Below, one piece after another: positions 34,295-64,000 of a stretch of DNA of 64,000 nucleotides. The notes under the pieces are model-generated. The model was not told the DNA's origin, did no database searches, and worked only from the letters and a program-made list of their open reading frames with translations. Numbering within the stretch: position 1 is the first letter of the stretch; each line of letters begins with the position of its first letter. The position numbers and the translations under genes are program-made. Source of the stretch: Alphaproteobacteria bacterium (GTDB taxonomy: Bacteria > Pseudomonadota > Alphaproteobacteria > Micavibrionales > Micavibrionaceae); assembly GCA_030427385.1 (NCBI GenBank), contig JAUHWR010000001.1:1544042-1608041 (forward strand), in the 5' to 3' direction.

Positions 34295-34340
34295 ATCGGG
34301 TTCCTTCAAAATACGTATAAGTTTGATTGTTGTAATATGA

Positions 34341-35375: not shown

Positions 35376-35389
35376 TAGAGTATTCAGCT

Positions 35390-36010: not shown

Positions 36011-36224
36011 ATCTTCCTCCATTACGGCCTGTCTTTCATAAGCTTCCCCACACCGGTTGCCTTTCATAAGATAAGCGGATAAGTTGTTCAGCAGGCTTAC
36101 TTTTATTTATATTACTTTTTTATTATGTAATAAAAACCTGCCTTGCGGCGCAACAAAAAAGTTGTTTTATATAATAACTTCATTTAAATAGTCAATTTCA
36201 TTATAAAATGCAATAGGAAAATTA

Positions 36225-37364: not shown

Positions 37365-37415
37365 TCTTTAGGGATTTATGCCTATCATTTTCAAAGGATT
37401 AAGATATAACACCCT

Positions 37416-38654
37416 ATGTTTTACAAATTGAGCAATGCCGGTTTAAGAATGGCGTCTTTAGGTATAAAAATGCTGTTTATGCTCTATATGGGGAAGTATT
37501 TGGGCTTATATGATTTGGGGACATATGGTCTTGTCGCCGCGATTGTGGCGTTGTCGATACCATTATTGGGAATGCAATTGGAATATGTGATCTCGCGAGA
37601 GATCATTGGTGAAAATGATGAACATCAGGCGATATTGCTTAAAGATGAATTGATTTTTTATATGTCCAATTATGGTTTTCTTATTTTTGGATGCATCATC
37701 TTATGGCCCGTTCTGGCGGATAGCTTTGACAGCAGCATTATAATTTACACATTGATTTTGTGTATTTTAGAGGGCATATCAACGCTTGCGACCGCAACTC
37801 TAACGTCATTGCAGCGCCCTATCATTGGCAATATTGTCTTCTTTATCCGTTCTTCATTATGGGTCATTCCGGTTGTCATTTTGGGTCTTATTGATGAAAC
37901 CTATAGAAACGTAGATATTATTTTTCAATTTTGGATTGGCGGCGCGCTGTTAAGTTTAGTATTTGCGGCTTTTATTTTGAAGTATTTGCCATGGATTAAG
38001 GCCTTTCAAGCCAAAACAGATTGGCGGCGCATTCTAAAAAATGTCAAAAAAGCTCTGCCTTTATGGGGCGCCGCAGTTTGTTTGGCGGGGGCGACCTATC
38101 TGGACCGTTTTGTGGTCGAAAGTTTTTTAGATCGTGAATTTGTGGGTATTATAAGTTTTTACAGCGCCTTTATCGTTGCCATTGCCGCCTTAACGGGCAG
38201 CAGTGTTTTCTCCTTCAGCTATCCCCGCATGATCGCTCTACATAAGGATGGAAATCATGCGGAGCTTTACGCTTTGACCAAATCCACAACCATACAGGCC
38301 GGCATTTGGGCGCTGGGATTATCGCTTATAATTGGGCTCTTTATACCCGTTTTAGGTGAGATGATCGGACGGCCGGAATTTGCAACCTATAAAGCTGTGT
38401 TTTACATTATGTTGCTCGGCGTGGTGATCCGCACCACCACGCAAAGTTTGCAATTTTTAAGCTATGCCCAACATGATGATTGGGTTGTATGGACCGGCAA
38501 TCTGGTTTTCCTACTCAGTTCATTATGTTCTGCACTGATTTTAATCCCGCTTTTAGGCTTCATTGGCGCGGGATATAGCGCGATTATATCCGCACTATGT
38601 TTAAGCCTGTGGCGATTATATTATATGAAGCCAGAACCCGCCGCCCCCGCCTAA
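37416..38654 (+). CDS. Polysaccharide flippase (Wzx / MOP superfamily)
   Basis: 412 aa with about 12 hydrophobic helices. The N-terminus (LRMASLGIKMLFMLYMGKYLGLYDLGTYGLV) is typical of oligosaccharide flippases. Confidence 0.7.
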   Translation: MFYKLSNAGLRMASLGIKMLFMLYMGKYLGLYDLGTYGLVAAIVALSIPLLGMQLEYVISREIIGENDEHQAILLKDELIFYMSNYGFLIFGCIILWPVLADSFDSSIIIYTLILCILEGISTLATATLTSLQRPIIGNIVFFIRSSLWVIPVVILGLIDETYRNVDIIFQFWIGGALLSLVFAAFILKYLPWIKAFQAKTDWRRILKNVKKALPLWGAAVCLAGATYLDRFVVESFLDREFVGIISFYSAFIVAIAALTGSSVFSFSYPRMIALHKDGNHAELYALTKSTTIQAGIWALGLSLIIGLFIPVLGEMIGRPEFATYKAVFYIMLLGVVIRTTTQSLQFLSYAQHDDWVVWTGNLVFLLSSLCSALILIPLLGFIGAGYSAIISALCLSLWRLYYMKPEPAAPA

Positions 38655-49900: not shown

Positions 49901-52900
49901 CTTGCATCATCAAAGCCAATCCCCACGATCTCTGCCGGATCATCCGTCTGAAATTCAAATGACAATACCGTATTTGCCGTTAAAGAATAGGGATATAGAA
50001 CACGCTTCCATGCATTACCACCAATCGTTAGTTCAGATCCATCTGCACTGACGGTTGCTGTAGCTGGCAAGCCGTTTTGCCCGTCTTGAAAAGCATCAAA
50101 GGCTTCTATTGTATAATCATTAAAATCGATAATATTCGGCGCGCCGTCATTTATCACCAGAGTCGGTGCTTCGTTAATCGGTGTCACATTGATTAAGAAC
50201 GTATCAGTATCAGGCGCCGCGCTGTTTTCGCCGCCATCGGCAACTTGAATATCAAACCCCGCAACAGTTGTTTCGCTATCATCATGTATAAACGTGACCA
50301 ATCCAGCATCCAGATCGGCCTGCGTGAACGTATTTTGTGTCACGCCGTTCACTTGAATTATTCCGTTACTTAGATTAGACGCGGTCCAATCCAAACCTGT
50401 TCCGAAATCATCGGGGTCAAAGGAATCCAACATGGTGGTATTTAAAACCAGCGTTGCGCCTTCATTCATGGTCGGCGCAGCATTGGTGGAAATTATAGGT
50501 GCATCATTAATGTTATCAACGCTCATGCTAAATGTACCTGAGGCAGTGCCCGCCCCATGCTCCCCGCCGTCAGCAATTGTAAAATCAAAACTAGCCGTCG
50601 TCGGAGGGCCGCTATGGCGGAAAGCAATTCGTGAATTATCAATATCATCCTGCGTAAAGCTGGTAATCGCCACATTCGGGTTTGAGACAAATTCAACTTG
50701 TCCGTTAACTGTCCCTGTTATGTTGAAATCCAGACCAATGCCGCTATCATCCGGATCAGCGGCGCGCAAAACAGCATTTTTAATTAAGACAATGCTGTTC
50801 TGATTTACAGAGGAACCAAGATTTAAACCAATCGTCGGGGCATCATTCACCGCAATTTTTGTCAGGTTAATCGTAGCACTATCGGGGACAGCGCCATGCT
50901 CCCCGCCATCTGCCACGCTCACATCGAATTGTGCATTTCCTTCATTGCCATCATGACGAAACACAACCCGATTTGCATTTAAATCGGCTTGGGTAAACGA
51001 AAGGATCGGCACACCCGGATTAGTCGAAAGCTCCACAAAGCCATTTGTGATATTGGATAGTGTATAAGTAAGACCTGTGCCGCTATCATCCGGATCAGTC
51101 GTATTTAAAATTGCGGTTGTAATGGTTACGGTTTGACCTTCGACCACGCTGACGGGCGCATTTGTTGTGATGATCGGCGTATCATTTAACGGCGTTCTGG
51201 TAAGGGTGAATGTCCCCGTAGCGGGTACGGCGCTATCCTCCCCGTCATCCGCCAAAGAAAAGTCAAAGCTGCCATTGGCTTCTGCGCCGTCATGGATAAA
51301 GACAACCCGGTTATTATTGACATCATCTTGCGTAAATGTTGTGGATGTTACGCCGTTGACCTCTATGTGGCCATTTGCAATCGAACTGGCAGTATACGTT
51401 AATTGATCTGGTGTATCCGTTACATCTGTATCGGTTGAATCCAGCATTGCTTGGGATATGCCAATGCTACCCCCTTCCAACACAGTTGCGCCGGTATTGG
51501 TTATGATAGAGGGACCATAATTTACATCCGTGATCACAATATTAAAGGTGTTTCCTGATACTGTCTCCCCACCATCAGTTACACTGAAATCAAAACCATC
51601 GGACAAAGTCTGCGATCCGTCATGGATATAAACTACGCGGTTATTTTGTATATCATCAAGCGTGAAGCGTGAAATTTCATAACCGGGGTAAGTTGTTAAC
51701 TCAATACGGCCATTGACCGGCTTGCTTTCCATTCTAAAAATTGTATCGCTCGCCACATTATCAATATCGCTTATATTCAACTCCGCAATCGTAATCGGGG
51801 TTGTGGCCCCTTCCAGAACATTTAACGGGTTGTTATGTGTGATGGTAAAATCATCGTTAAAGTTAATAGTAATATCAATTTCCGCAAATTTCCCGCCAAC
51901 GGCTTCAGTGGCGCGAATGGTCAAAATGTAGCTATCTGTTACAGTTGCATTCAGATTTGTGGTATCCAGAATTCGTAATTCACCTGTCAGTGTATCAATC
52001 TCAAATATACCATCGCCATTTCCCGCCTGAACCGAATAGTTTAACACGCCGCCTTCGGGGTCAATCCCCTTCACAAACCCAACAGAATCGCCAACATTAA
52101 TGTCCGATCCATCAGGGTTGGAATGGCTGAGTGTATAAGTATCATTATTGATAACATCCTTGCCCTCCCACTCCACGACTGAATATCGCGAACTGCCATT
52201 ATTATCGTCATACCACAGGTCATTATTGTTCATCAGCGCATAGTTTGCGCCTGTACCGCTATTTGGCTCTGATCCGTTCCAGTTATTATAAAATGCACCA
52301 TTATCTACATTACCATTTCGCACAATTTGCATACCGGCTTCGGGGCCCGCCATCCAATACCACTCCCCTTCATTGCCGGAATCACTGGCGGCAATCCATG
52401 AATGTGTTGATGTCATCTGATCTACGAATGATTGCTCCGCAGCCGATGTGATGGTGACCAAATGCCCGCTTTGGCCAAAAAGAAGCTGCGTTTCCGCAAA
52501 TGATAACGCATCATCAAAAGACCTGTTTGTGGTGATCTCTTTACAAAAATTCCCTGTTGCCGCACTGTAATAAACACCAAAATAAGTTGTTTCAACAACT
52601 GCTTCCGCCGTCAGAAGGGGCGCTTCATCGATATCGGTGATGTTAATAACAACATTCCTGTCGGTATATTTTGATAAAGCATTGTCATCATAAGCGCGTA
52701 TACGAATGGTATATTGATTATCACGGTCATAATCCAATAACGTATTATTCGCAATTTCAATTAAACCCGTCGTTGCATTAATTTTGAATACATTATCGTT
52801 ATTACCGCTTACGATTGAATAGGTGCGCGTATCCCCTTCTGCATCTGTCGTTACAACCGTGCCGACATCATCATTAACACTCGCATTTTCGGCAATGGAA

Positions 52901-55530
52901 AAAGGGCCATAGCTTGTAAAAACCGGCGCCGTATTTTCAAGTGCATCCAGAATATTGATGGTATAGGTCTGATCATCAAAAAGTAACCCCGGCCCATTAT
53001 CCGTCGCACGTACATCCAATGTATATGATCGTATTCCCAATTCGTAATCAATTGAGCTGTTATCAATAATTTTAATTTCACCTGTGGCGCTATCAACCGA
53101 GAAAATGCCCACGCCCGTGCCACCGGTAATAGTATATGTCAGGCTTTGCCCAACATCCGGATCATATCCCGCCACATGCCCGATTTGATCATTATTCGGG
53201 GTTAATTCCGACATTTCAATGACACGGTCAGAACCGGTTTCCTTTAGTTCCTTAATTTTCAAATTATCGATGCCGAACGCTTCATTATTAAGATCATTTG
53301 TATTCAAGTTTGAACCAAAACCTAATTTAAAGGAGCTATCCGTATTCTTAATGGTTAAAGAATATCTGACGATCTGGTCCTGATAAGAGGTGTTATAAGT
53401 AATAAAGCCGATATCATCGGTTAATTCCTGTACGCGATATGTCACATCGCCAAATGTGCCACCCACTTCCCGATCATAAGTCGTGCGATTATAAATATCA
53501 TTGTTTAAAACCTGTGTATCATTAATAAACAGGTAAAATCTCTCGTTTTCCCAACTATCAAGCTCATAAAAATCAAACTCAATTGTGATATATTCCTGAT
53601 CACCGGACAGGGCGAATGTTTGAAATAATTCTTGATCGCCCGCAACGTGAACATTTCTGCCAAATCTGCCCCAAAACTGCGATAACGTGGCATCGGTTGA
53701 TGTTGTATTATTATTCCAACCTGATGCGCCGCCTTCAAAATCCTCATCATATATAGTTACTTCTTCCAATAAAACCGGCGCGGTATTGACGGTATTGACC
53801 CGGATATCATAGGTCTGTCCCGCAATCGTGTTGGTACCGTCATACAGGCTGAAGATAAATTGATCATCAGATCCGATCATGCTGTCATATGTGATTGAAC
53901 CAACATCTAAATCATTCTGTGTAAATGTATCCCCAAGCCCCAAAGCGACCCCGTCTTTGTAGATCGTGCCAAAAGAAACATTGCCGGTAATGGTGTAAAT
54001 CAAGGCGGAGGAGCTATCATCAATATCTGTGGCAATTAATTTGGTATTTAACTCACCTGGATCAAGCGGAAAATCATAGACAATAAAATCACTATCAATG
54101 GTGCCCTGAAAGGCCGTTGTTCCGTTCGCACTGCCGTTAAAACCGCCATAAGACCCACCGCCAACAACCCCGATGCCGCCGTCATTACCACCGGATAAAT
54201 CGGCTGTGTCCGTATATCCTGTTAAAGAGGCTTCGGCCGTTCTGCCATAAGAAAACCAATCAAAGTTTCCTGCTTGACGGTAATGCATTCTGATTTCGTT
54301 TGATTGCACATCAACTTCAACAACTACCGCATACTGCGTAGAGTTAGCCAAAGCCGCCCCAGAGGATAAAACGGGAGTATTAGAGGCCGCACCTGAATAC
54401 CAGACCAATTCGTTTGCGCTATTAAGATAGAGCCCTATTCCGCGACCTGATCCGCCATCTTCAAACAGAACTTGTCCGGGATTTGCCGCGTAATTAGTTG
54501 CCGCCGTTGTAAAAATAAGTGTGAACTGGCTGCTTTGACCATCTATCAAACCCTGATTTGTGCCATATGATCCAACCCCGCTTTCGCGATATTTTTCAAT
54601 GCCAAATGTGCTGGCATCGCCGCCGAGTGAGACGGAAAAGCCAAGCGAGACATCCGCGCCGTTATTGGTGACAATTATCGGTGCTTCATCAACCGGCGTA
54701 ACATCAATCGAAAATGTCTGCGCGGTTACTGTGTCTGTCCCATCCGTAATTGTAAAATCAAATGAATCCGATATGGTTTCGGAATCATCATGCACATATT
54801 GCACACGGTTATTATTAAGATCATCCAGTGAAAAAGACGTAATCGCAACGCCGGTATTTGTGCTCAGCTCTATGCGGCCATTTATGGTTGTACTTGTGAT
54901 ATTAAAGATTACTTCTGTATCCGTATTATCTGGATCGCTTACGCCCAACATCGCCGAAGTGATCGTTGCCGTACTACCTTCAAGAAGGCTGAGCGGTGTG
55001 TTTGTATCTACGCTTGGCGCTTCATTTTGAGCAACAACTGTCACACTGATATCTTCGGAAAAATACGCCCCTAGAGAGAAATTTATCGTACGGTTAAGCG
55101 TTGGGCTATCTGAGCTATTTTGATAAGTTATATTTTCTATCAAGCGTTCAATTGCCGCTTTGGACGCATTAATATTTAAATCAAAGACCAAATCCAAGCC
55201 GTTTGTTCCGTTTGAAGAAACCGTGGCAATCAATACGCCCTCAAAAGTCACGTTCGCTCCATCGAAACCGATTTGACCTGCGCCCGTGCCTTCATCATTT
55301 AAAGTTAATTGGTCTTCCGCGCCGCCCGTCGTTGATATCGTTAGCGCATCACCATCAAAATCGGTTGTTGTGCCTGAGATAGTAACGTCTGAATCAAGTA
55401 TTTGCGGAGTTGCATTGGCATCATTTTCCGCCATAACAGTTGTTGTCGTCAACGCCCCCAAAGAAGCATCCAACATCACGCGCTTTTCCAGCGCCATGAG
55501 GGTCAATCTCTTTTTTCGGATCCCTGACAT
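46972..55530 (-). CDS. Giant (~2850 aa) mosaic adhesin with about 20 cadherin-like/Ig-like ~105-aa repeats, classical cadherin repeats, LamG, two jelly-roll/CBM-like domains and a C-type lectin domain; no Sec signal, no RTX
   Basis: Recurrent repeat ...NEGA...I....L...D.D......F......NG..........IT.F...D.....V.F.HDGSE....F.F...DG. LamG at about 54100-54560. Jelly-roll at about 53250-53760. CTLD at about 52160-52560 (HSWIAASDSGNEGEWYWMAG...YNNWNGSEPN...WYDDNN...VVEWEG). CBM-like domain at about 49670-50140. Classical cadherin repeats at about 47440-48040 and 52590-53000. The ORF-track start at 55539 is a TTG; the ATG at 55528-55530 has a GGAAAGG SD. Confidence 0.85.
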   Translation of the reverse strand: MSGIRKKRLTLMALEKRVMLDASLGALTTTTVMAENDANATPQILDSDVTISGTTTDFDGDALTISTTGGAEDQLTLNDEGTGAGQIGFDGANVTFEGVLIATVSSNGTNGLDLVFDLNINASKAAIERLIENITYQNSSDSPTLNRTINFSLGAYFSEDISVTVVAQNEAPSVDTNTPLSLLEGSTATITSAMLGVSDPDNTDTEVIFNITSTTINGRIELSTNTGVAITSFSLDDLNNNRVQYVHDDSETISDSFDFTITDGTDTVTAQTFSIDVTPVDEAPIIVTNNGADVSLGFSVSLGGDASTFGIEKYRESGVGSYGTNQGLIDGQSSQFTLIFTTAATNYAANPGQVLFEDGGSGRGIGLYLNSANELVWYSGAASNTPVLSSGAALANSTQYAVVVEVDVQSNEIRMHYRQAGNFDWFSYGRTAEASLTGYTDTADLSGGNDGGIGVVGGGSYGGFNGSANGTTAFQGTIDSDFIVYDFPLDPGELNTKLIATDIDDSSSALIYTITGNVSFGTIYKDGVALGLGDTFTQNDLDVGSITYDSMIGSDDQFIFSLYDGTNTIAGQTYDIRVNTVNTAPVLLEEVTIYDEDFEGGASGWNNNTTSTDATLSQFWGRFGRNVHVAGDQELFQTFALSGDQEYITIEFDFYELDSWENERFYLFINDTQVLNNDIYNRTTYDREVGGTFGDVTYRVQELTDDIGFITYNTSYQDQIVRYSLTIKNTDSSFKLGFGSNLNTNDLNNEAFGIDNLKIKELKETGSDRVIEMSELTPNNDQIGHVAGYDPDVGQSLTYTITGGTGVGIFSVDSATGEIKIIDNSSIDYELGIRSYTLDVRATDNGPGLLFDDQTYTINILDALENTAPVFTSYGPFSIAENASVNDDVGTVVTTDAEGDTRTYSIVSGNNDNVFKINATTGLIEIANNTLLDYDRDNQYTIRIRAYDDNALSKYTDRNVVINITDIDEAPLLTAEAVVETTYFGVYYSAATGNFCKEITTNRSFDDALSFAETQLLFGQSGHLVTITSAAEQSFVDQMTSTHSWIAASDSGNEGEWYWMAGPEAGMQIVRNGNVDNGAFYNNWNGSEPNSGTGANYALMNNNDLWYDDNNGSSRYSVVEWEGKDVINNDTYTLSHSNPDGSDINVGDSVGFVKGIDPEGGVLNYSVQAGNGDGIFEIDTLTGELRILDTTNLNATVTDSYILTIRATEAVGGKFAEIDITINFNDDFTITHNNPLNVLEGATTPITIAELNISDIDNVASDTIFRMESKPVNGRIELTTYPGYEISRFTLDDIQNNRVVYIHDGSQTLSDGFDFSVTDGGETVSGNTFNIVITDVNYGPSIITNTGATVLEGGSIGISQAMLDSTDTDVTDTPDQLTYTASSIANGHIEVNGVTSTTFTQDDVNNNRVVFIHDGAEANGSFDFSLADDGEDSAVPATGTFTLTRTPLNDTPIITTNAPVSVVEGQTVTITTAILNTTDPDDSGTGLTYTLSNITNGFVELSTNPGVPILSFTQADLNANRVVFRHDGNEGNAQFDVSVADGGEHGAVPDSATINLTKIAVNDAPTIGLNLGSSVNQNSIVLIKNAVLRAADPDDSGIGLDFNITGTVNGQVEFVSNPNVAITSFTQDDIDNSRIAFRHSGPPTTASFDFTIADGGEHGAGTASGTFSMSVDNINDAPIISTNAAPTMNEGATLVLNTTMLDSFDPDDFGTGLDWTASNLSNGIIQVNGVTQNTFTQADLDAGLVTFIHDDSETTVAGFDIQVADGGENSAAPDTDTFLINVTPINEAPTLVINDGAPNIIDFNDYTIEAFDAFQDGQNGLPATATVSADGSELTIGGNAWKRVLYPYSLTANTVLSFEFQTDDPAEIVGIGFDDASGFGGGVLGYQLYGSQVWSGMDQTFRTYQSGDGWVRFDIPIGQDYTGNMTQMVFVLDHDASGTSSITFRNVNFYESGNEVRMNEGGALNLTNVHINTVDVDDSGTGLTYTASNIENGHLEVNGVMATTFTQDDIDNNRLTFIHDGGDTLTAGFDLSVIDGTENGTLPDTGRFDIIIDAVDDLPTAAINNGVTLNEGATVTISNAQLTTTDIDTEPRKVIFDVTASPANGRLERSTAPGVAITAFSLADINAGRVRFVHDGSETTTDSFTFTVRDETNTLAADTFNIVITPQNDGAVITGDLSMTVIEGNSVTITTADLSAIDPDDGAGDVTYTVSALSNGIIKVGGVTQNTFTRQNIIDNDVTFTHDGSETVTAGFNISLADGLEHGAVADTDVMSITVTPVDDLPAVATNNGITLNEGATIDITTAALTTSDVDTLPAAVIFDVTGALSNGRLQLSTNAGVAITSFSLADIQAGRVQYVHNGSETTTDSFDFTVRDATNTLAADTFNITVTPQNDSAVIGGDLTIAMNEGASYTLTTTDLSGIDPDDINADITFTASNISNGTIEVGGVAQNTFTYQDIINSDVAFIHDGSETLTAGFDVSLADGLEHGAIADTASIAITVTPQNDAPTAIDLSNLDILETSEIGTIIGALSTTDSDLPADSFTYSIIADPDSKFILDSGNLVLNAALDFESQATHSVTVRSDDGNGGTFDQIFTINVTDNVAPDVIELDNMNIDENSEEQTLVGNLAATDANMPNDVMSYTLMTNPDNMFMISGDQLLLQSNALDFEEFSSIDIVVRVTDVEGNTFDQTFTIDINDIAEFSNEGFIEPERTRRHADLEFLSLKEPVRDSNLLLSDITGNFGQRDLFEIKTDQILRNHTTDRIREILGLDLSIPFIAQNNDEVVQKQVVSFENVDNSGGYTNMREAMDFLQDISDIQDISDEADILRQYDVNSAFVDVLTYHENRQAKLRQALMD
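48028..49365 (-). repeat. Near-exact tandem duplication (two units of 669 bp / 223 aa, each a two-domain unit) inside the adhesin gene
   Basis: The units begin at DDLPTAAINNG (first Asp codon at 49363-49365) and DDLPAVATNNG (48694-48696), exactly 669 bp apart. Long identical DNA runs occur, for example CATCGCGCACTGTGAA in both copies (near 48410 and 49080). Confidence 0.85.
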
Positions 55531-55610
55531 CAATAACAACCTTTCCGTCTTCTATTAAGTGTAATCGGATTTGGTTAAGAACTCTTAAAATTTTCAATAG
55601 TATCAGCAAT

Positions 55611-57032
55611 TTAATGCGTCATGACGATATCTCTCGCTAATGTATTTTGAAAGGTTGCATAGGCATCTTGCAGATCCGTTAACGATTGGTAATAAGATAT
55701 TTTTTTAGATTGCGCCTGCATCTTACGGATAAAAGCATCCTGTTTTGTTTCAAACCCAACGCCTGATTTCTTTTCCAGCGCATAAGCCATGAATTTTTCA
55801 TTCTCATATTCTTTCTGGCGATCACGCGTTAATTGATAAAAATAATCCAGCCTTTGCCGCGCCAAATGTACCTGTGTCATTACCGCCAAAGTCAATGATA
55901 ACCGCTTGGCGTTATCTATCTCCATTTGGTTTTTCGCCCCGCGCTTACGAAGGGGATAAGTAATCAGAGCAGATAAGTTTTGCTGCAAGGATAACGTGAA
56001 ACTGCCCCATTGATTTTGTCTTAAAAAATCGTTGCCATCGCGATTAATGCCAAATAATAATTCCGCGCCCGGAACGGTGCGAATGATTTCCTCGCGTAAG
56101 TTTTGTAAATTCACATCCCGCTGCAATACTTGTTCACGTATCTCAGGACGATTTTTAATTGCCTCTGCTTCAAGAGTTTCTATATCTTCCGCCAGAAGTG
56201 CCTTCACCTCTTTCGATGGTATCCGCATATCTTCGCTTAGTTTCAGATTGATATTTTGCGGATAAGATAACAGGCTTTTCAACTCGGTCATCGCCAGAGA
56301 AATCTGGCTTTGAGAGTTACGAAGCGCGGTAAGTGATTCTTGGATATCCTGTTCCATATCTCCTAATACTTCACGTGAAAGTAGCTTTTTATTCTCTGCG
56401 GTTTTTATATTTTGAAGCAATTCCTGCGCTTGGCGAAAAATAGCATCGCTTTCCTTTTCAGTTTTTTGTGCGGCGAGCGCACGGTAATAAGCGGCATAAA
56501 TATCCTTTTGAATATTCTGGACGACTTTATTATAACGCTCTATCGCTATTTTTTGCTGCGCTTTTGCATTTTGTGCCTGAGACACCGCCAATAATATATT
56601 TAACGTTGTCCAGTTCACGCTTAAATCTTGGGTATCCCGAAAGGACTGGGTTGAATATGATGGCTCTAATGATTGGGTATTTGTTAAAACTGACCGGCTA
56701 GACGCCGCGCCCTTATTGGATCGCCCAATATAGCTCGCATTTAAGTTTAAAGATGGTAGCGCATTCATTCTGGCCAGATCAATCTGGTCTTCGGCGGCCA
56801 GAGTTTCTAATGCGGCAACATATGCATCTAAATTCTTTTCTGCGCCGCGCCTTAAGGCATCATTCAAGGTTAGATGAATTGTTTGATGTTGAAAATCATC
56901 AAATCCCAATGCCTTTTGATCTTGCGCTAATACATCAATATGCTGCGCGCTATCCATCTCCGTTGGAGTTGTAGTACAACCGCACAAAAGGACAAAACCG
57001 CCAAGAAACATTAATTTTAAGTTGGGTATCAT
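55611..57032 (-). CDS. TolC-family outer-membrane channel lipoprotein
   Basis: Lipobox LLCGC. Two-fold repeated coiled-coil/beta architecture typical of OEP proteins (473 aa). Its start overlaps the upstream gene's stop (ATGA at 57029-57032). Confidence 0.8.
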   Translation of the reverse strand: MIPNLKLMFLGGFVLLCGCTTTPTEMDSAQHIDVLAQDQKALGFDDFQHQTIHLTLNDALRRGAEKNLDAYVAALETLAAEDQIDLARMNALPSLNLNASYIGRSNKGAASSRSVLTNTQSLEPSYSTQSFRDTQDLSVNWTTLNILLAVSQAQNAKAQQKIAIERYNKVVQNIQKDIYAAYYRALAAQKTEKESDAIFRQAQELLQNIKTAENKKLLSREVLGDMEQDIQESLTALRNSQSQISLAMTELKSLLSYPQNINLKLSEDMRIPSKEVKALLAEDIETLEAEAIKNRPEIREQVLQRDVNLQNLREEIIRTVPGAELLFGINRDGNDFLRQNQWGSFTLSLQQNLSALITYPLRKRGAKNQMEIDNAKRLSLTLAVMTQVHLARQRLDYFYQLTRDRQKEYENEKFMAYALEKKSGVGFETKQDAFIRKMQAQSKKISYYQSLTDLQDAYATFQNTLARDIVMTH

Positions 57033-59158
57033 GAGATCACATCACTTTCCGGTAAAATAATAGAATAAGCCCATATTAATATCTGGACAATGGGGGCGAT
57101 TTTTTCCCCCGACATCATGACCTTGCCTGTTGCGGCAAAAGGTACATCCGACACATCTGGGGTTAAGGTTACTTTATACAAAGTTTGGCGCGGAACGATG
57201 CGCTCTTCTTCATATCCATTTGTGAAAAACTCACTATAGATAGAACCGCCATAGAGTGAGGATAATTCCTTTTTATCCAGACTGCTTATGTTTGTTTGCT
57301 CAATGTCTTGTACTTTTACGGGGATGGTATCAGCAAGAGCATAATCTGCCCGAAAACTCCCTTTTGTACCCGCCTTCAATCTTTCAAATTGCTGCTCTGT
57401 GACATAAGCACTTACTTTATAAACTTGTGGCTTTATGAGGCGAAATAGTAATTTTTCTTGTCCGACATATAGACCTTCATGCAAATCTTCGGCGCCGTCT
57501 TTAATAATACTGTCATAGGGCGCTTTAATAACAAGCTGTTCCTTTTTCACCTCGAAGGAGGATACTTTTAGTGATAATTCTTTGATTTCATTTTCTAATT
57601 GATCCAGATCCTCCCGCAGCAATGCCGCATCTGTTTGGCGGCGTCTCTTGATTTTCTCCAATTCCTGTAGCGAATTTTTGGCGATATTATAATCGCGTTC
57701 CAATTCTTCTGATTGCATGTAAATTAAGACTTCACTGGCTTTGACCATACGGTTTTCCGTGACATTTAAAGAGATAATTTGCGCAGGATATGGTGCATAA
57801 ATATCGCGATATTCCGCAGCATGAATTAAAGCGGGAATTTGCATACGCATATTTAAGGGAATAAATAATAAACACAAAGCGCATGCAAATAATAGAACGC
57901 TTATTTTGCCTCTCGCATGGATAAGAATGTCTTGCCTGCGAGTCGCCCATATTTTGAGCTCCGATAAGATGGGCTTACCTATAAACCACAGCAATTCAAT
58001 GCCCATAAGAATTAACCCAAGCGGCTTTGGGAATAACACATATACCAAATACGCAATCCCCAAAAATAGGAAGAAACGATAAATCAAAATGGCCCAGCCA
58101 AAGATGATAAAAAACTTTATTTTTTCTGGCCGCCCATATTCCGGGCACTCATCTTTCCATCCGAATAATGTTTTACGCAAAGCCCAGCGCGCACAGGCAA
58201 AAGAGCGTGCATGAAGGTTTTCTATGCTGAGCATATCGCTTAAAATGAAATATCCATCAAAGCGCATTAGCGGGTTTAGGTTAATCAATAATGAGCCGAT
58301 AAGTGAGATACTCACGATACTAAAAGCAATACTCTGCAATGTGCCGGGCGCGGAAAAATTCCAAATTAACAGAAAAATAGAGGCGAGCATTAATTCAATG
58401 CGTATCCCGGCAAGACCAATTTCAATCTTTTCTTTCTTAGAAGCCAAATGCCAGGCGGCCGTGGTTTCTGTGTAAAATACCGGATACATCACCATAAAGG
58501 CAATGCCCATATGCGGTACCTTTAACCCATATTTATGCGCAGTATATGCATGTCCAAGCTCATGAAATAATTTGATAATTGTAAATATTATGGCGATCAT
58601 CATTGCACCTTCTGCACTGAATAAGTCCATAAAAGTATGGATAAATTCATCCGCGCGCCCCAATGTCATGATCACGCCCAATATCAATAATAAAACACTA
58701 AAAAACGTTGCTTCTCTGGAGAATAAAAAAGCAAGATACGGATACGTCGCCTTTAAGAAATTTTGCGGGCGAAATATGGGCAAAGAAAAAAATAAATATT
58801 TATGAACCAGTTCAGATAATAACGATTTTTCTTTTTGGGGCGGGGTAAGGGGCAGCCCGTCTGTTTCTAAAATTAATCCATGTTGATTTAGAAATAACAA
58901 CAATTCCTTAAAAACATCCGTCTCCGGCTCCAGAGTGGTTTGATTATGTAGTAAAGACGCAAGATCATCATATGTTTCACAAAATGAAAAGCGGGACAGA
59001 TATTCAAATTCAACCCAGCCAATTTGAAAATATTGATGGGAAACGGGATGATATAACCGCCAGAATGGCTGCCCATCCTCATCAATGCCGCCCTTTATTA
59101 ACTTCAAATCCGGACTAAGGCGGGGTATTTTTGTATCGGCGCTTACCTCGAACATCAT
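57029..59158 (-). CDS. Fusion protein: cytoplasmic PqqD/RRE-like N-domain, polytopic S2P/M50 zinc metalloprotease, and HlyD-type membrane fusion (periplasmic adaptor) domain
   Basis: HELGH at 58550-58564 and NLNPLMRFDG at 58253-58282 (S2P HExxH and NxxPxxxxDG motifs) sit inside hydrophobic helices. At least six TM segments. The C-terminal 260 aa have a coiled coil (EELERDYNIAKNSLQELEKIKRRRQ...) plus beta-barrel segments typical of MFPs. Confidence 0.75.
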   Translation of the reverse strand: MMFEVSADTKIPRLSPDLKLIKGGIDEDGQPFWRLYHPVSHQYFQIGWVEFEYLSRFSFCETYDDLASLLHNQTTLEPETDVFKELLLFLNQHGLILETDGLPLTPPQKEKSLLSELVHKYLFFSLPIFRPQNFLKATYPYLAFLFSREATFFSVLLLILGVIMTLGRADEFIHTFMDLFSAEGAMMIAIIFTIIKLFHELGHAYTAHKYGLKVPHMGIAFMVMYPVFYTETTAAWHLASKKEKIEIGLAGIRIELMLASIFLLIWNFSAPGTLQSIAFSIVSISLIGSLLINLNPLMRFDGYFILSDMLSIENLHARSFACARWALRKTLFGWKDECPEYGRPEKIKFFIIFGWAILIYRFFLFLGIAYLVYVLFPKPLGLILMGIELLWFIGKPILSELKIWATRRQDILIHARGKISVLLFACALCLLFIPLNMRMQIPALIHAAEYRDIYAPYPAQIISLNVTENRMVKASEVLIYMQSEELERDYNIAKNSLQELEKIKRRRQTDAALLREDLDQLENEIKELSLKVSSFEVKKEQLVIKAPYDSIIKDGAEDLHEGLYVGQEKLLFRLIKPQVYKVSAYVTEQQFERLKAGTKGSFRADYALADTIPVKVQDIEQTNISSLDKKELSSLYGGSIYSEFFTNGYEEERIVPRQTLYKVTLTPDVSDVPFAATGKVMMSGEKIAPIVQILIWAYSIILPESDVIS

Positions 59159-59161
59159 GGG

Positions 59162-60493
59162 CTATACCCCCAACATACTACGCAGCGTGATTAACGGTCT
59201 GCGCAAGATTTTATAGATCAAGATAGTGCGTTGCCCATTAATTTTGGCAACACCTTTCCATCCGATGCGTATGTCCGCATCCTTATCATTTAAAAGCGCG
59301 CGGATTTTATAAGTTAGCAATCCATCAGCATCCGCACTGGCCTGATAACCTATGGTATCTATTGACGCGGCATAATTCACCAAAGGCGTGGCATTAGGAA
59401 AGAAGGAAATGTCTGCCTCTTCTCCCACTGGCAACATTGATTGCAAGGGAATACGAATTAAAAGCTCAACCTCGGCGGGATCGGCAATCTGCATGATGGG
59501 TTGTCCTGTCCGCACCGGTTTATTTTTCAAATCATTTTTATCGGCAAAGATAGCTATGCCGGCACGCGGCGCTTTAATGACGGCTTTGTCTAGTTGAGTT
59601 TTCGCATAATCCGCTTCGATCTCTTTGGTTTTAATCTCTGATAACAGACGATGCAGTTCCGTCTTTTTTTCAGGGCTTGATAAAACTTCTCTCTGTAATC
59701 GGGAAAGGCGGCTCAAAGACGCCCTATAAGCTTCCGAAGATGTGTCTGCTTGCAAAGTCAAAGAGTCCAAATCCATTTCTGCCACGGGCATGTTTTCGTC
59801 AACCTTGGAACCCGGATTAATCAGAACATTATTTAATATACCGTCAAATGGCACGCTGACGGTCATCGAGGATACCGCAATGACTTCGGCGGGCGCGCTG
59901 ATTGTTAATCTGACAGGTAGAAATGCAAGTAAACATAATATAATCCATATATATTTTCGATATGGCTTTACCTTGTCGGATAAAGGTAGAAAATCACGCT
60001 TATCTTTAACGCGGTTCAAAACCATGGCGCGCGTATAGTAAAATGATAATTCGTTTAAAATATGTGTATCGGCCTCACTTAATGGCGCTTCACGTTCCAG
60101 CCACAGACCGCCTAAAATTTGTTGATCTTCGCCGTATTTAAAAAATACAATTGAGGCATTCGGCGCGGAATATCCCAGCCATTCTTTAGTTTCCTCCTCT
60201 GATAATCCTGATAATTCAATGGGATGTATAATATCATCGACCTGGGAGCCTTTGATCTCTTTTTGCAAAACATCCTTCAGCCATATTCCGTGTGGGCCAT
60301 TAGGGTCAAGTACAGCATTGCCAGAAATGTTATGCAGATTGACCGTCTTACCACTCACCGTCCAAAAAACTGCCCTTCTGTAATCGACAATTTTTTTAGA
60401 GACATTTACCGCTAGAAAGCCGAGTTCCTTTAATGACGTCGTTTCCAGAGCCTGTTTTTGGATTTGGAGCAATAGCAGCGCCTTATCCATCAT
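59162..60493 (-). CDS. HlyD-type membrane fusion protein with an N-terminal cytoplasmic GAF-like domain
   Basis: About 175 aa of soluble N-domain ending ...QILGGLWLEREAPLSEADTHILNELSFYYTRAMVL (GAF-like by eye). One TM helix (YIWIILCLLAFLPV). Then lipoyl-like, coiled-coil and beta-barrel MFP segments (VIKAPRAGIAIF...VRTGQPIMQIADP). Confidence 0.65.
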   Translation of the reverse strand: MMDKALLLLQIQKQALETTSLKELGFLAVNVSKKIVDYRRAVFWTVSGKTVNLHNISGNAVLDPNGPHGIWLKDVLQKEIKGSQVDDIIHPIELSGLSEEETKEWLGYSAPNASIVFFKYGEDQQILGGLWLEREAPLSEADTHILNELSFYYTRAMVLNRVKDKRDFLPLSDKVKPYRKYIWIILCLLAFLPVRLTISAPAEVIAVSSMTVSVPFDGILNNVLINPGSKVDENMPVAEMDLDSLTLQADTSSEAYRASLSRLSRLQREVLSSPEKKTELHRLLSEIKTKEIEADYAKTQLDKAVIKAPRAGIAIFADKNDLKNKPVRTGQPIMQIADPAEVELLIRIPLQSMLPVGEEADISFFPNATPLVNYAASIDTIGYQASADADGLLTYKIRALLNDKDADIRIGWKGVAKINGQRTILIYKILRRPLITLRSMLGV

Positions 60494-61736
60494 TTGCCCC
60501 TGTTTGCACTGCTTGCTTCATTTTACTTAAACGTCTGTTATTTTGCATTTGTAAGGCAGTTTGCTCCTTTTGCGTTTCCAAATATCCTAGAATGCCCTGA
60601 TCACGGATTTTCAATGCGTTCACTTCAACCAGACCGCTCATCCCCGGTAATAACGGATCATTATACCCCTTTAGCGCCGCGCTCATTTGAATAGATTGAC
60701 TGACGGGGTCAACTTCACCGTAAATCTTTGTTATCTCTGCCTGATAAATTTCTCCTGTTTCGGATACTTTGACGCTCAATGGCGCGCCGATATTCACATA
60801 GCGCAACCATTTTGAGGGTAGAATAAACTGGACATCTAATTGATCGCGTGAAGCAATTTCCATTAAAACACGATCTGTGCGTGTATATTCCTGGGGATTT
60901 GCCAGGCGATTCGTGACACGCCCATCATAGGATGCGCGAATGATGCAAGCATCCATTTGAGATTTTAGCGTGCTATTTTGCGCTGTGGTTTTTTGTTCCT
61001 CAACCTTCAGCTCTTGCTGTTCCAGATCCGAAATAATATCAAGCTTGAACAGCTCTTGCCCTTGTTTTACACGTTTTTTTGCCAGATTTTCAGCCGCCTC
61101 AATTGCCGCGATTTCATCATTAAGATTTTGACAATCATACGTCAGCAAAATATCACCCGCCTGAAACACATCGCCATTATCAACATAAATATGCTCGATT
61201 TTGCCATCGCGGCTGCTGGAAATAACCGTCATTTTTTGCGGCACTAACACGCCTTCAACGCGCAAGATTTCGTCTTCTATATCATAGCGATATGACATCG
61301 GTTCAGATATAACAACGCCCTTGGGCGGCTCCTTGCGTTTGACAATAATACCATCGGTGCTTTCTTGATCATCCTGTGCAAGTTTATGCGGCGCAGAATC
61401 CGTAATTGTTTGTAATTCCTGTACATGCAAGATAGGGGCATGATCATGATTTCCAGAGCTAGGCTCAATATCCTGTAATGATACCCAAGAGCTGATATCA
61501 GGTTTTGCGAATAATCCTTGCGGGATTTGTACGGAAAAATTTAATTTTGATTGCCAATAGGTACTGGTTTCCTGAAACAGTTCCACAAATTCTTTGCCAT
61601 TGGGCAAGCCTACTTCTGGGATATAGCTCTTCGAAGCTTCCTGACGTTCGGTAACATAAAAAAATCCGCCACCTGCAAAAATACAGATGATCAGCCCCGT
61701 AAGGAGTATCCCGAATGTTTTTCTCTTCATTAACAT
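60483..61736 (-). CDS. HlyD/RND-adaptor-type membrane fusion protein
   Basis: N-terminal TM helix (FGILLTGLIICIFAGGGFFYV). Lipoyl-like VDNGDVFQAGDILLTYD, a coiled-coil hairpin, then IIRASYDGRVT... and GMSGLVEV. The start is uncertain (TTG 61742, ATG 61736 or ATG 61730). Overlaps the next gene by 11 nt. Confidence 0.75.
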   Translation of the reverse strand: MLMKRKTFGILLTGLIICIFAGGGFFYVTERQEASKSYIPEVGLPNGKEFVELFQETSTYWQSKLNFSVQIPQGLFAKPDISSWVSLQDIEPSSGNHDHAPILHVQELQTITDSAPHKLAQDDQESTDGIIVKRKEPPKGVVISEPMSYRYDIEDEILRVEGVLVPQKMTVISSSRDGKIEHIYVDNGDVFQAGDILLTYDCQNLNDEIAAIEAAENLAKKRVKQGQELFKLDIISDLEQQELKVEEQKTTAQNSTLKSQMDACIIRASYDGRVTNRLANPQEYTRTDRVLMEIASRDQLDVQFILPSKWLRYVNIGAPLSVKVSETGEIYQAEITKIYGEVDPVSQSIQMSAALKGYNDPLLPGMSGLVEVNALKIRDQGILGYLETQKEQTALQMQNNRRLSKMKQAVQTGANDG

Positions 61737-61840
61737 AACCAAGCAGACATGCCCAAGTGAATGGAATAGACTTTTCCACTTTTTATAATAAAGTAAAAAT
61801 CAAGACTGCGGAACGAAAAATCTAAAAAAACGATATTTTT

Positions 61841-63250
61841 CTAAGCTTTAATGCTGAATTGATTCGTTTTTTTACGGCAAATTGATTGGCACCAGAAATG
61901 CACGCTTGCCCCCGCAAGTACATTCACCCCGGCGATCGCCACAAATAATCCGGTAACGCCATAGTAAAAATGCCCGATATAGATGGCGGGAATCATAAGG
62001 AAAACCATCTTTACGACAATCATAACAAACGATAAATGCGGCATGCCCATGGCATTGAATGCCGATGCCCACCCATTCACCAAGTTTGAAAAAGCATAGG
62101 TCAGCGGCACAATCATAAAAAACAAGACAACATAATTGATAACGCCTTGGCCTTGTTGAAATAACGCGCCAATCTGTTCACCGAATATTAATAAAATTAA
62201 GGCCACTATCATCGAATAAATAACGGAAAACCCAATCGCCAGTCGCAGGGTTTCATTAACGCGGTCCATTTTTTTTGCGCCAAAATTCTGTCCTATAATT
62301 GGCGCCATGCCAACGGCAACACCCATAATTACTATAAATGCGAATGCCTCTATACGGCTGACAATGCCAAAAGCCGCAACGGCCTCAAGGCCAGATTTCG
62401 CCAAAAGTGTAATAATCAGCGCATTCACAACCGGCTGGATAGAATTCGTCAAACCCGCCGGAAGTGCAATAAATAACAACCTTTTGGCACTATCCCAAAA
62501 TAACTCAAAGCGTATGAGCTGCTGAAAGCAAATCAGGTTTTTTTTAACATATAGAACGTATAGCCCCGCGCACATAGCCGCGGCATTGGCAATGACGGTG
62601 GCAATCGCCGCGCCCTGAATTTCCAATCGTGGGAATCCCCATAATCCAAAAATCAATAATGGGTCCAAAATAATATTAACAACCGCAACAACCGTCATAA
62701 TTATTGCGGGCGTAAAAGCGTCCCCACTGGCACGAATGGCTGAATTGCCAACAAGAGGTATTGTTATAAAAACCACGCCTGCATACCAAACCGTCATGTA
62801 ATTAATCACTAATGGTAAGAGGTCCGGGTCTGCGCCCATTAATGTAAATAACCCGTTTTGTGACCAAAGTCCGATCCCCGCCAAAACTAAAGACAGCAAT
62901 AAAACCAGTAATAACCCTTGTGATGTAACGCGTTGCTGCACCTCGCGATTCCCCTCCCCGATCAGGCGAGATACCACGCTGGACATGGCGATGCCAAAGC
63001 CCATGACAAAGCTGAAGATCATATAGGTAATCGGGAATGTAAAGGTAACTGCGGCTAATTCCTCGGTGCCGAGTAACCCGATAAAATACATATCCACCAA
63101 CTGAAATGAAATAATCGCCCCGATCCCCCACATCATTGGCACTGATAAACGGGTTAAATGGGATTTAATTGCGCCCTTGGTTAAATCGCCCTTATTTTTA
63201 TAATGGGCAGGAATGTCGGCATCATCATCAAGGGCGGGCTCAGAACTCAT
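61841..63250 (-). CDS. MATE-family efflux transporter
   Basis: 12-TM protein. LTRLSVPMMWGIGAIISFQLVDMYFIGLLG is typical of the MATE N-terminus. The start was moved to the ATG at 63248-63250 (MSSEPALDDD...), which removes an improbable 72-aa extension that would run into the purL promoter region. Confidence 0.8.
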   Translation of the reverse strand: MSSEPALDDDADIPAHYKNKGDLTKGAIKSHLTRLSVPMMWGIGAIISFQLVDMYFIGLLGTEELAAVTFTFPITYMIFSFVMGFGIAMSSVVSRLIGEGNREVQQRVTSQGLLLVLLLSLVLAGIGLWSQNGLFTLMGADPDLLPLVINYMTVWYAGVVFITIPLVGNSAIRASGDAFTPAIIMTVVAVVNIILDPLLIFGLWGFPRLEIQGAAIATVIANAAAMCAGLYVLYVKKNLICFQQLIRFELFWDSAKRLLFIALPAGLTNSIQPVVNALIITLLAKSGLEAVAAFGIVSRIEAFAFIVIMGVAVGMAPIIGQNFGAKKMDRVNETLRLAIGFSVIYSMIVALILLIFGEQIGALFQQGQGVINYVVLFFMIVPLTYAFSNLVNGWASAFNAMGMPHLSFVMIVVKMVFLMIPAIYIGHFYYGVTGLFVAIAGVNVLAGASVHFWCQSICRKKTNQFSIKA

Positions 63251-63332
63251 GAGATAGGTATAGAAGTTTTTTCTGTCGATGAAAACAAAGAAAAGGCTTT
63301 TCCTTCCTATTGTTTCGATTGTATAAAACCAT

Positions 63333-64000
63333 ATGACACAAAATGCCCTGAAATCATCCGCCGCCACAATCCATGAGCCTGAAGTAACCTTTGAGCTTGC
63401 CAAAGGATATGGATTAAGCCGTGAAGAATATGACCTCATCTTAAATCGTTTAGAGCGCACGCCCACCCATACCGAAATAGGAATATTTTCAGTAATGTGG
63501 TCAGAGCATTGCTCCTATAAAACATCACGCATGCACCTTAAAACGCTGCCCACTAAGGCACCTTGGGTCATTCAAGGGCCGGGGGAAAATGCCGGAGTTA
63601 TTGATATCGGCGATAATCAGGCCGCCATATTTAAAATGGAATCTCATAATCACCCTTCTTATATTGAACCCTATCAAGGTGCAGCCACTGGCGTGGGCGG
63701 TATTATGCGCGATGTCTTTACAATGGGCGCACGCCCAATTGCGAATTTAAATGCGCTGCGTTTTGGGGATCCCTCCCATCCTAAGACACGGCATTTAATC
63801 AACGGGGTTGTCGCCGGAATTGCTGGATATGGCAATTGCATGGGCGTACCAACTGTTGGCGGAGAAACTCAATTTGACAGCAGTTATAACGGAAATATCC
63901 TTGTTAATGCCATGACTGTAGGTATTGCCGAACAAGATAAAATATTTTATGCACGCGGTGCATCCGTGGGTCAGCCGGTGGTTTATGTCGGGTCAAAAAC
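63333..64000 (+). CDS. purL: Phosphoribosylformylglycinamidine synthase subunit PurL (5' part, runs off the right edge)
   Basis: My own translation from the ATG at 63333 gives [66 protein letters not shown]...[12 protein letters not shown]...[27 protein letters not shown]. This is the canonical PurL N-terminus. It is absent from the ORF track because no stop codon lies within the window. Confidence 0.9.

Follow-up and report, generated by a model that had tools for sequence, protein, structure and literature searches.

We describe a four-gene cassette in a 64,000-nucleotide stretch of contig JAUHWR010000001.1 from an alphaproteobacterium of the family Micavibrionaceae (the window, meaning the whole stretch analysed). 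The cassette encodes two membrane-fusion proteins (MFP-A and MFP-B), a fusion of a site-2 protease of the M50 family (S2P/M50) with a third adaptor of this type (M50-MFP), and a TolC-like outer-membrane factor (OMF), and it adjoins the gene of a giant cadherin-repeat protein. We propose that the four genes probably form a dedicated envelope-spanning apparatus for the export and display of the adjoining giant, which would depend on an N-terminal leader and would work free of ATP-binding cassette (ABC), resistance-nodulation-division (RND) or major facilitator superfamily (MFS) transporters. The proposal draws on the domain make-up of the four proteins, on the recurrence of the cassette beside giants sharing an N-terminal motif, and on a distantly related system that carries a SecA paralogue.

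The four-gene cassette and its giant neighbour

A sequence-only reading of this DNA had described four translationally coupled, co-directional genes, followed on the same strand by an adhesin gene 71-80 bp downstream, and the open reading frame (ORF) listing bears this out at every junction (Table 1). Adjacent genes are joined by an 11-nt overlap (60483-60493), a 3-nt gap (59159-59161) and an ATGA overlap (57029-57032), and the stop of the OMF gene lies 71 nt (TTG start) or 80 nt (ATG start) from the giant. No terminator-like site was found by scanning the gap between the OMF gene and the giant, and the promoter and terminator scans overall gave signals no better than those of shuffled controls. 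Pfam searches on all operon genes detected no ABC, RND or MFS gene, in agreement with the earlier claim that the operon holds neither an ATPase nor an antiporter; this claim had overlooked a MatE gene (61841-63466, reverse strand) located 98 nt upstream. The MatE gene was considered as the missing pump and rejected, as it is kept only in a relative of 61% identity (L001), and it is thus a neighbour that probably stands outside the system. Its ORF seems to be over-extended at the 5' end, since the alignment with its homologue begins at residue 73. Neither an ABC exporter nor a SecA was found among the large ORFs of the window, and LapG and LapD gave no matches in Pfam and NCBIfam searches of the operon and flanking genes.

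Table 1. Genes and domains of the cassette and of the adjoining giant in the window.
Feature	Position (nt)	Strand	Basis
MFP-A gene, 419 aa from TTG (ATG at 61736)	60483-61742	(-)	ORF listing
MFP-A, plain periplasmic adaptor	60483-61736	(-)	HlyD_3 2.2e-17, HlyD_D23 6e-13
MFP-B gene, 443 aa	59162-60493	(-)	ORF listing
MFP-B, GAF-like adaptor	59162-60493	(-)	HlyD_3 1.2e-7
M50-MFP fusion gene, 709 aa	57029-59158	(-)	ORF listing
M50-MFP, cytoplasmic winged-helix domain like a recognition element (RRE-like), 7-transmembrane S2P (M50) and periplasmic HlyD-type MFP	57029-59158	(-)	Pfam, NCBIfam, AlphaFold2
M50-MFP, RRE-like (PqqD-like) winged-helix domain, residues ~12-97, proposed leader-binding module	58868-59125	(-)	AlphaFold2 topology
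M50-MFP, M50/S2P membrane domain, residues 113-437	57848-58822	(-)	Peptidase_M50 5.7e-6
M50-MFP, periplasmic MFP part, residues 438-709 (from 436 in the AlphaFold2 model), alpha-hairpin 484-540	57032-57847	(-)	HlyD_3 5.5e-10
TolC-like lipoprotein gene, 473 aa	55611-57032	(-)	ORF listing
TolC-like OMF, lipoprotein (signal peptide + LCG|C)	55611-57032	(-)	OEP 2.4e-19, two stretches
Giant ORF (first ATG at 55530, giving 2852 aa)	46972-55539	(-)	ORF listing
Giant cadherin-repeat protein, 2852 aa, proposed substrate/partner	46972-55530	(-)	Cadherin_3 x12 (6.6e-229), Cadherin, Cadherin_4, Big_9, Lectin_C
LExR ("LEPR-XLL"-type) motif LEKRVMLDA, residues 14-22, after basic RKKR; proposed targeting/cleavage leader	55465-55491	(-)	Motif scan
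C-terminal non-repeat module of the giant, last ~165 aa, ending ...YTNMREAMDFL...FVDVLTYHENRQAKLRQALMD; candidate stopper, anchor or second signal	46975-47469	(-)	Conserved blocks

The profile searches that the sequence-only reading had proposed as a check supported its calls of three MFPs, an M50 domain (just under the gathering score) and an OEP, while the GAF-like part that it had also named is supported indirectly, through AlphaFold2 topology, homologues and the sister system described below. M50-MFP contains seven hydrophobic or transmembrane segments, and this odd number places its first domain in the cytoplasm and its adaptor part in the periplasm. In the AlphaFold2 model (pLDDT 93.9) the N-terminal domain has a beta3-alpha3 order, with strands at residues 19-25, 31-37 and 42-46 and helices at 48-55, 63-73 and 80-92. 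The protease domain has the polytopic membrane core and both motifs that define S2P/M50 proteases, HExxH as HELGH (residues 199-203, nt 58550-58564) and NxxPxxxxDG within NLNPLMRFDG (293-302; NPLMRFDG, 295-302, nt 58253-58276), and H199, E200, H203, N293, P296, D301 and G302 are invariant across 119 homologues. It scored 138.2 bits (3.8e-40) with daptide_HExxH (NF041824; equivalog cut-off 300) and 50 bits (3e-13) with YydH/LiaK (NF058609; equivalog cut-off 225). Judged from these scores, the protease is related to the daptide and YydH/LiaK leader peptidases of peptides that are ribosomally synthesized and then modified after translation (RiPPs), but is a member of neither family. In a PDB profile search the fusion matched mjS2P (3b4r) at 0.004, and the closest match of its MFP part was HlyD of the HlyB/D complex (8dck, 3e-17). 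The top Foldseek matches of the fusion model were MacA, EmrA, ZneB and MexA.

MFP-B starts with a GAF-like domain (residues 1-135, nt 60089-60493), after which come a long helix, a transmembrane segment (182-200) and a periplasmic MFP part (193-441) with a 30-residue alpha-hairpin, so that a cytoplasmic region of ~170 residues precedes the membrane. In its AlphaFold2 model (pLDDT 94.6) the cytoplasmic region shows the alpha/beta order of GAF domains, and Pfam matches were obtained for GAF in 7 of 89 homologues (best 1.2e-5) and for GAF_2 in 9 of them. Its closest PDB profile match was TriAxB (6vej, 4e-12), and the best 50 Foldseek hits listed for the full-length models of MFP-B and M50-MFP were exclusively adaptor structures. 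Both modelled adaptors, MFP-B and the MFP part of the fusion, carry hairpins of the TolC-docking type in the AlphaFold2 models. MFP-A has a single N-terminal transmembrane anchor (residues 10-28) and scored 110.8 bits with the NCBIfam model RND_mfp (TIGR01730; cut-off 94.9). The OMF is predicted to be a lipoprotein, as are many of its relatives, a lipobox being present in 54 of 71 homologues. None of the four cassette proteins has a model of its own in NCBIfam release 20.0.

The giant had been described as an adhesin with neither a Sec signal nor RTX repeats, and both points stand: it contains 0 GGxGxD repeats, and none of the 19-residue windows across its 2852 residues, N-terminus included, reaches a mean Kyte-Doolittle value of 1.6. 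The lack of a hydrophobic segment means that it has neither the core of a Sec-type signal nor a membrane anchor. The N-terminus reads MSGIRKKRLTLMA-LEKRVMLDAS, and the LExR motif occurs only once in the six frames of the window. The 24-residue NCBIfam model LEPR-XLL (NF012209) scored 13.8 bits on LEKRVMLDAS (cut-off 17), and the giants of relatives carry the canonical LEPR[ILV][ML][FL]D or FEPRVLLSAD. DUF4347 gave no match on the window giant. At the other end, the blocks G..Q...FY, QILRE.TT, YTNLR.AL.FL and FVDV[LM]TYHE.RQ..LR.AL are common to 13 giants of the same clade. The Nitrospira-type giants (L019, L021, L025, L029, L032, L049) end in a conserved hydrophobic hairpin (...GFVAW[IL]LR[SG]G.LL....L...PAW[RQ]HFDPLPVL), beyond which lie a basic cluster and an acidic ~40-aa tail, unlike the helical C-terminal module of the window giant.

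Distribution of the cassette and a related SecA-bearing system

At E<=1e-30 the M50-MFP family counts 3,099 cluster representatives, and its best 150 members are all ~700 aa long and collinear. In GTDB species-representative genomes, a relative is encoded in at least 574 of 600 stretches that matched the search pattern. Relatives are auto-annotated as "putative peptide zinc metalloprotease" (YydH-like) or "PqqD family", two labels that the sequence-only reading had named correctly. We surveyed 87 loci found via M50-MFP with our own ORF calls and phmmer (8055 ORFs), covering Alpha-, Beta- and Gammaproteobacteria, Nitrospirota, Campylobacterota and Bdellovibrio-like metagenome-assembled genomes. 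The OEP/MFP-A/MFP-B/M50-MFP cassette was detected in nearly all of them, with MFP-A as the second gene in most loci and the OMF gene first or last in nearly all. No ORF with a Walker A and an ABC signature lies inside any of the 87 cassettes, and an ABC-like ORF of ~600 aa was found within 10 kb in one locus. A co-inherited ABC or RND pump, which the sequence-only reading had named as evidence that would speak against it, is thus not encoded inside these cassettes, and the conserved adjacency of the giant, for which it had proposed a neighbourhood survey, is also observed. In four relatives (61, 44, 41 and 39% identity) the adaptors, the OMF and an adjoining giant cadherin-type protein are all present, while gene order and the other domains of the giants vary.

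An adjoining large ORF with L-E-x-R-h-h-h-D-[AG] (h, hydrophobic) near its N-terminus was found in 49 of the 87 loci, or in 52 after relaxing the regular expression or the start-codon call. In 14 further loci an ORF exceeding 1400 aa adjoins the cassette and is truncated at its 5' end, where the locus stops, and most of the remaining loci have less than 5 kb on one side. The motif was absent from all other ORFs among the 8055 scanned, and it was never seen on small ORFs. The logo of 53 distinct N-termini reads h-h-[APS]-L-E-[PKS]-R-[ILV]-[ML]-[FL]-D-[GA]-[AS] and has basic residues in front of it. The residues L, E, R and D never vary and alternate with hydrophobic positions, L, E and R being preset by the search pattern, so that the invariance of D is the sole independent observation. 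The alternation with hydrophobic residues resembles a beta-strand read from one face. We also approached the association from the opposite side, by searching the contigs of metagenomes for degenerate DNA encoding LEPRIMFDGAA, a pattern that is independent of the cassette. At least 120 stretches matched, and among the matches listed the motif ORF was present in 116; of these, 45 held at least one cassette gene and 7 the full cassette, figures that quantify the reverse association only in part because most stretches were shorter than a giant gene. Where ~3000-aa giants of the "RRTMMALEPR" class could be followed to their end (L110, L127, L173), OEP, MFP-A and MFP-B genes come next, and in several loci two LEPR giants flank one cassette.

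Some variation in gene neighbourhoods was observed. Three Nitrospira cassettes have a gene for DUF3467, a small protein that also occurs in the SecA-bearing operons described below, ~4 kb upstream and on the other strand (L028, 5544-5972; L029, 5546-6049; L047, 1840-2229), which could reflect either lineage synteny or a shared accessory factor. Marine giants (QLHIQLLEPRIMFDGAAIY, YPLMKVLEPRIMFDGAAIF; L099, L107, L159, L177, L075, L076) have an unusually long OEP-like gene of 650-815 aa by the start of the giant, mostly in divergent orientation, and in Pelagibacter (L075) the adaptors come after the giant. In Methylobacter (L073, 4144-6867) the housekeeping secA directly follows the M50-MFP gene, a single case that is probably due to chance but is of interest in view of the SecA paralogue of the system described below.

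Cultured hosts were found by tblastn against plasmids and chromids. Azospirillum brasilense has a gene for a DUF4347 protein starting ...MALEPRFMFDAAGA, followed by those for an Ig-like giant, for TolC and for three proteins annotated as adaptors. The giant of A. brasilense appears as two genes with a 4-nt overlap, one for a 798-aa DUF4347 protein with the LEPR leader (L209, 583-2979; NZ_CP032347.1, 515582-517978) and one for a 3383-aa Ig-like protein, and this may be either a true split or a frameshift. In Cupriavidus metallidurans CH34 (NC_007974.2, ~2137400-2154450), the record of which is unannotated, the giant starts ...TLALEPRLLYDAAAG and the ORF order is giant, OEP, MFP-A, MFP-B and M50-MFP, and Variovorax paradoxus gave a full-length match to M50-MFP. 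Plasmids of E. coli and Citrobacter carry a 4459-aa Ig-like giant starting MTTIKNRRLRPRAHRFALESRQLFDGAA, followed by TolC, an adaptor and two HlyD genes. The five-gene block sits on IncF-type plasmids and is flanked by insertion sequences (L211/L213; E. coli MS 115-1, NZ_CP146666.1, 123597-143348), its giant beginning ...FALESRQLFDGAA. It is present in 24 of 5,426 complete E. coli genomes, mostly plasmid-borne, with 4 chromosomal places. The annotations of the E. coli and A. brasilense cassettes list no ABC gene.

A more distant homologue of M50-MFP is encoded on a Pseudosulfitobacter plasmid (L212, NZ_CP085155.1, 43731-88342), with 20% identity over a collinear alignment (residues 29-676 vs 33-685, E=3e-40). 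It follows the gene of a 12,737-aa giant with the N-terminus ...ETFEPRVLLSADL, which reads ...FEPRVLLSADL and is the one N-terminus of this sister system that was read. Residues 37-101 of the homologue score 26.8 bits with Pfam PqqD (threshold 23.4), and the adaptor preceding it scores 26.9 bits with GAF (threshold 22.4). Aligned with hhalign, the N-terminal domain of the window M50-MFP matched the PqqD domain of this homologue at E=5.8e-4 over 88 columns, and through this homology the window domain is probably related to PqqD-like recognition elements; the same comparison with a single PqqD sequence was not significant.

The next gene on the Pseudosulfitobacter plasmid encodes a 660-aa SecA paralogue with matches to SecA_DEAD (7.5e-99), SecA_PP_bind and P-loop_SecA. 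Through this paralogue, loci with 61, 54 and 52% identity were found in Oceanicola granulosus, Roseomonas sp. and Mesorhizobium, where the giants measure 12,869, 8,223 and 9,435 aa, respectively. The four operons (L212, L215, L216, L217), from Rhodobacterales, Roseomonas and Mesorhizobium, share the order giant, optional DUF3467, GAF-adaptor, PqqD-M50-adaptor and SecA paralogue (653-660 aa). The wing/scaffold domain (SecA_SW) gave no match on the scanned Pseudosulfitobacter paralogue and is not among the recorded Pfam matches of the other three, and no OMF gene was called in the surveyed stretch of these operons. The sister operons show that evolution has coupled the adaptor-protease pair to a polypeptide-translocating ATPase. 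As this system carries a SecA-type ATPase, the machine is probably energized rather than passive.

Proposed export route and its alternatives

Starting from the observed gene content and order, domain identities, catalytic motifs, topology and cassette-motif pairing, we propose the following route. The giant would be made without a Sec-type signal and with a leader consisting of a basic stretch and L-E-x-R-h-h-h-D-[AG]. The winged-helix (PqqD/RRE-like) domain of M50-MFP would bind this leader in the cytoplasm and hand it to the S2P-type protease, whose active site is expected near the cytoplasmic face of the seven-transmembrane domain, and the leader would be removed there. The periplasmic parts of MFP-A, MFP-B and M50-MFP may build a tunnel that docks on the TolC-like lipoprotein. 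Through it the chain would leave N-terminus first, its Ca-binding cadherin repeats would fold outside, and the C-terminal module would remain behind as a stopper or anchor, resulting in surface display. The motor is probably of the SecA type, namely the housekeeping SecA here and, in the sister system, a truncated paralogue of its own; folding on the outside may help. SecA is the lead candidate for the energy source by analogy with the sister system, the window itself holding no sign of it. A double role for an M50 protease has been suggested before, as EpeP was proposed both to cleave and to export its peptide (PMC10885120). The sequence-only reading had already pictured a machine that recognizes and cleaves a leader and exports through TolC; the recognition step gains support from the shared N-terminal motif, the beta3-alpha3 domain and the PqqD-scoring homologue, while cleavage and export stay at the level of prediction.

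Several observations weigh against this export route. The Peptidase_M50 match of the window fusion, at 26.3 bits, stays just under the gathering score of 27.2 (the E. coli homologue reaches 34.7 bits). Its N-terminal domain gave no PqqD match in Pfam, where 30 homologues were also searched, or in the PDB profile search, and the GAF profile did not match the window MFP-B. Two loci with full flanks (L018 and L084) have no adjoining giant. A SecA gene adjoins this type of cassette once, as the housekeeping gene of L073, and no ATPase is otherwise linked to it. To our knowledge, S2P domains are not known to conduct chains of 300 kDa, and no known protein-conducting channel is present. The conserved C-terminal modules of the giants could be signals of the type I secretion system (T1SS) kind, in which case the direction of transport would be reversed. 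The window also encodes a classical RTX protein (22880-27316), and since no ABC gene is linked to it, a T1SS ABC transporter is probably encoded elsewhere in the genome. Finally, leader binding, cleavage, transport direction, stoichiometry, energy source and secretion itself are steps that we infer.

The last of these genomic observations bears on the idea of a split T1SS, in which an unlinked ABC transporter would power export and read the C-terminus, and the cassette would supply the adaptors, the TolC-like channel and an accessory protease. The closeness of the fusion MFP part to HlyD, the probable unlinked T1SS ABC transporter and the clade-specific conserved C-terminal modules all agree with this idea. 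However, the ABC gene of a T1SS is normally linked to its MFP gene, with which it forms a specific pair, whereas the 87 cassettes from several phyla contain no ABC gene at all and the E. coli plasmid block unites the giant and the four genes without one. The universally conserved element is moreover N-terminal and not C-terminal, and the sister system adds SecA and no ABC, which together make a split T1SS quite unlikely. We consider it very improbable that the cassette is unrelated to the giant and merely neighbours it as an exporter of small RiPP-like peptides, an efflux system or a signalling module of regulated proteolysis. S2P proteases classically act in signalling, and the named protease families nearest to this one have small RiPP precursors as substrates. 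Yet the LExR motif is confined to large adjoining ORFs, giant and cassette stay adjacent at identities as low as 20% even where gene order and strand have changed, and the cassette contains neither sigma/anti-sigma genes nor RiPP-modifying enzymes.

Retention and release of a giant exported by other means is the likeliest of these alternatives, although it also appears unlikely. Here the cassette would hold the N-terminus at the inner membrane and in the duct, and cleavage of the LExR leader by the M50 domain, perhaps under the control of a ligand that the GAF-like domain binds, would release or shed the adhesin, following a logic like that of LapA/LapG/LapD with other components. The fusion of a protease to an adaptor and the presence of a sensor-type GAF-like domain facing the cytoplasm fit such a role, and the conserved C-terminal modules of the giants could be the real secretion signals. 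LapA-type adhesins indeed stay tethered by their N-terminus in a TolC-like channel, as summarized in a 2026 preprint (10.64898/2026.03.19.712371). Against this stands the lack of any other linked export route in more than 200 loci, for a giant that has neither a Sec signal nor RTX repeats. If its N-terminus is held in the cytoplasm by the RRE-like domain, the chain must cross the inner membrane at this very complex. The addition of a SecA-like motor to the same two proteins in the sister systems points to transport, and the C-terminal hydrophobic hairpin of the Nitrospira-type giants would be awkward for export with the C-terminus first. Taken together, we favour leader-dependent export by the cassette itself.

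Extending this export hypothesis to the sister operons, we tentatively suggest, as a possibility that falls somewhat short of being probable, a new class of Gram-negative secretion system for giants. It would be characterized by a LEPR-XLL-type leader and by a core of an RRE-S2P-adaptor fusion and a GAF-adaptor, joined in the type of the window by a third adaptor; it would exist in a TolC-like or a truncated-SecA-like form and would be driven by a SecA-type ATPase together with extracellular folding.

Relation to known systems and further genes of the window

Among known systems, the T1SSs of giant adhesins (LapA/LapBCE, SiiE/SiiCDF, MpIBP) are similar in that a HlyD-like adaptor and a TolC-like channel stand beside a giant Ca-binding repeat adhesin without a Sec signal. 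A continuous envelope duct is probable in both cases, and the adhesin is probably kept on the surface by a terminal module. The cassette shares the HlyD-type MFP and the TolC-type OMF of a T1SS, but it has no dedicated ABC transporter, it encodes three adaptors instead of one, and the S2P/M50 domain is its sole polytopic inner-membrane module. The giants likewise differ from T1SS substrates, which have a C-terminal uncleaved signal and usually RTX repeats, in their conserved N-terminal LExR and the absence of RTX repeats. Tripartite pumps rely on an energized transporter, as in RND, MacAB and EmrAB systems, and the operon contains none. TriABC-OpmH resembles the cassette in using more than one kind of adaptor per TolC-type assembly, and TriAxB is the best structure match of MFP-B; TriABC has an RND transporter and small-molecule cargo, whereas the cassette has three kinds of adaptor but lacks a transporter. 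The sequence-only reading had stated that every characterized tripartite system pairs one MFP with an energized transporter; the pairing with a pump still applies, but the number is too absolute, as TriABC uses two MFPs.

Peptidase-containing ABC transporters (PCATs) and bacteriocin exporters are alike in outline, in that the export machinery includes a fused protease that reads and cuts off an N-terminal leader. In PCATs this is a cytoplasmic C39 cysteine protease on an ABC transporter that handles peptides, whereas here it would be a membrane-embedded M50 protease on an adaptor, with a cargo of 300 kDa to 1.3 MDa. The M50 leader peptidases of RiPPs (YydH/EpeP/LiaK, daptide MpaP) are the closest named relatives of the protease and have an N-terminal domain in the same position, but they lack an MFP domain, belong to Gram-positive RiPP clusters and act on small peptides. 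The accessory Sec system (SecA2/SecY2) of Gram-positive serine-rich adhesins recalls the sister system, as both have a dedicated SecA paralogue by a giant with an unusual N-terminal signal. The sister system differs in having no SecY2 or Asp proteins, in its Gram-negative hosts, in giving no wing/scaffold match on the paralogue scanned and in its association with adaptors and an S2P protease. The window cassette, unlike accessory Sec, has no SecA gene of its own, and its giant, free of a hydrophobic core and with no SecA-like ORF in the window, does not look like a substrate of Sec or accessory Sec. By analogy, the logic of the cassette is most like that of a PCAT (a leader and a fused protease), and the motor is perhaps like that of accessory Sec.

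A full-text literature search, with poor coverage of subscription journals, returned no published description of the system, and the reviews of tripartite pumps and adaptors found do not mention protease fusions. Within the reach of the literature covered, we rate the cassette as a new kind of system. LEPRxLL-tagged giants, some of which are among the largest bacterial proteins, are said to "lack known signals for transport" in the preprint cited above (10.64898/2026.03.19.712371); the 20,000-36,000-aa symbiosis proteins of Chlorochromatium are one example. If the export hypothesis is true, the LEPR-XLL tag on some of the largest bacterial proteins gains a function, and the conserved pairing of tag and machine would explain how these giants leave the cell. 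It would also imply a route through TolC that works without an ABC, RND or MFS pump, and a new role for site-2 proteases, for PqqD-like recognition domains and possibly for SecA paralogues. The occurrence of the five-gene block on E. coli and Citrobacter plasmids and of the system in the tractable C. metallidurans CH34 and A. brasilense makes these predictions directly testable.

Other genes of the window also encode surface and envelope proteins. The RTX ORF mentioned above (22880-27316, reverse strand; 1478 aa) combines RTX nonapeptide repeats with Cadherin_5 and Big_9, and it shares a similar C-terminal tail (...EV[VI]HT.E..D[IV].A[IL].G...) with a 542-aa ORF at 20848-22476 on the same strand; no ABC or MFP gene lies beside this pair. 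An inverse autotransporter (IAT_beta 3e-42) is encoded at 9708-13040 on the forward strand. On the reverse strand, a 2427-aa two-partner-secretion (TPS) exoprotein (TPS domain 7e-34) is encoded at 13309-20592, with no TpsB gene seen alongside, and a protein with a Tle1-like phospholipase domain at 163-1251. Two PRC-barrel proteins are found at 27586-29453, followed at 30630-38654 by an exopolysaccharide cluster with glycosyltransferases, a Wza-like Poly_export/SLBB protein, a GNVR chain-length protein, a Bac_transf priming transferase and a flippase. The Rfam scan detected only a tRNA, at 9388-9475 on the forward strand.

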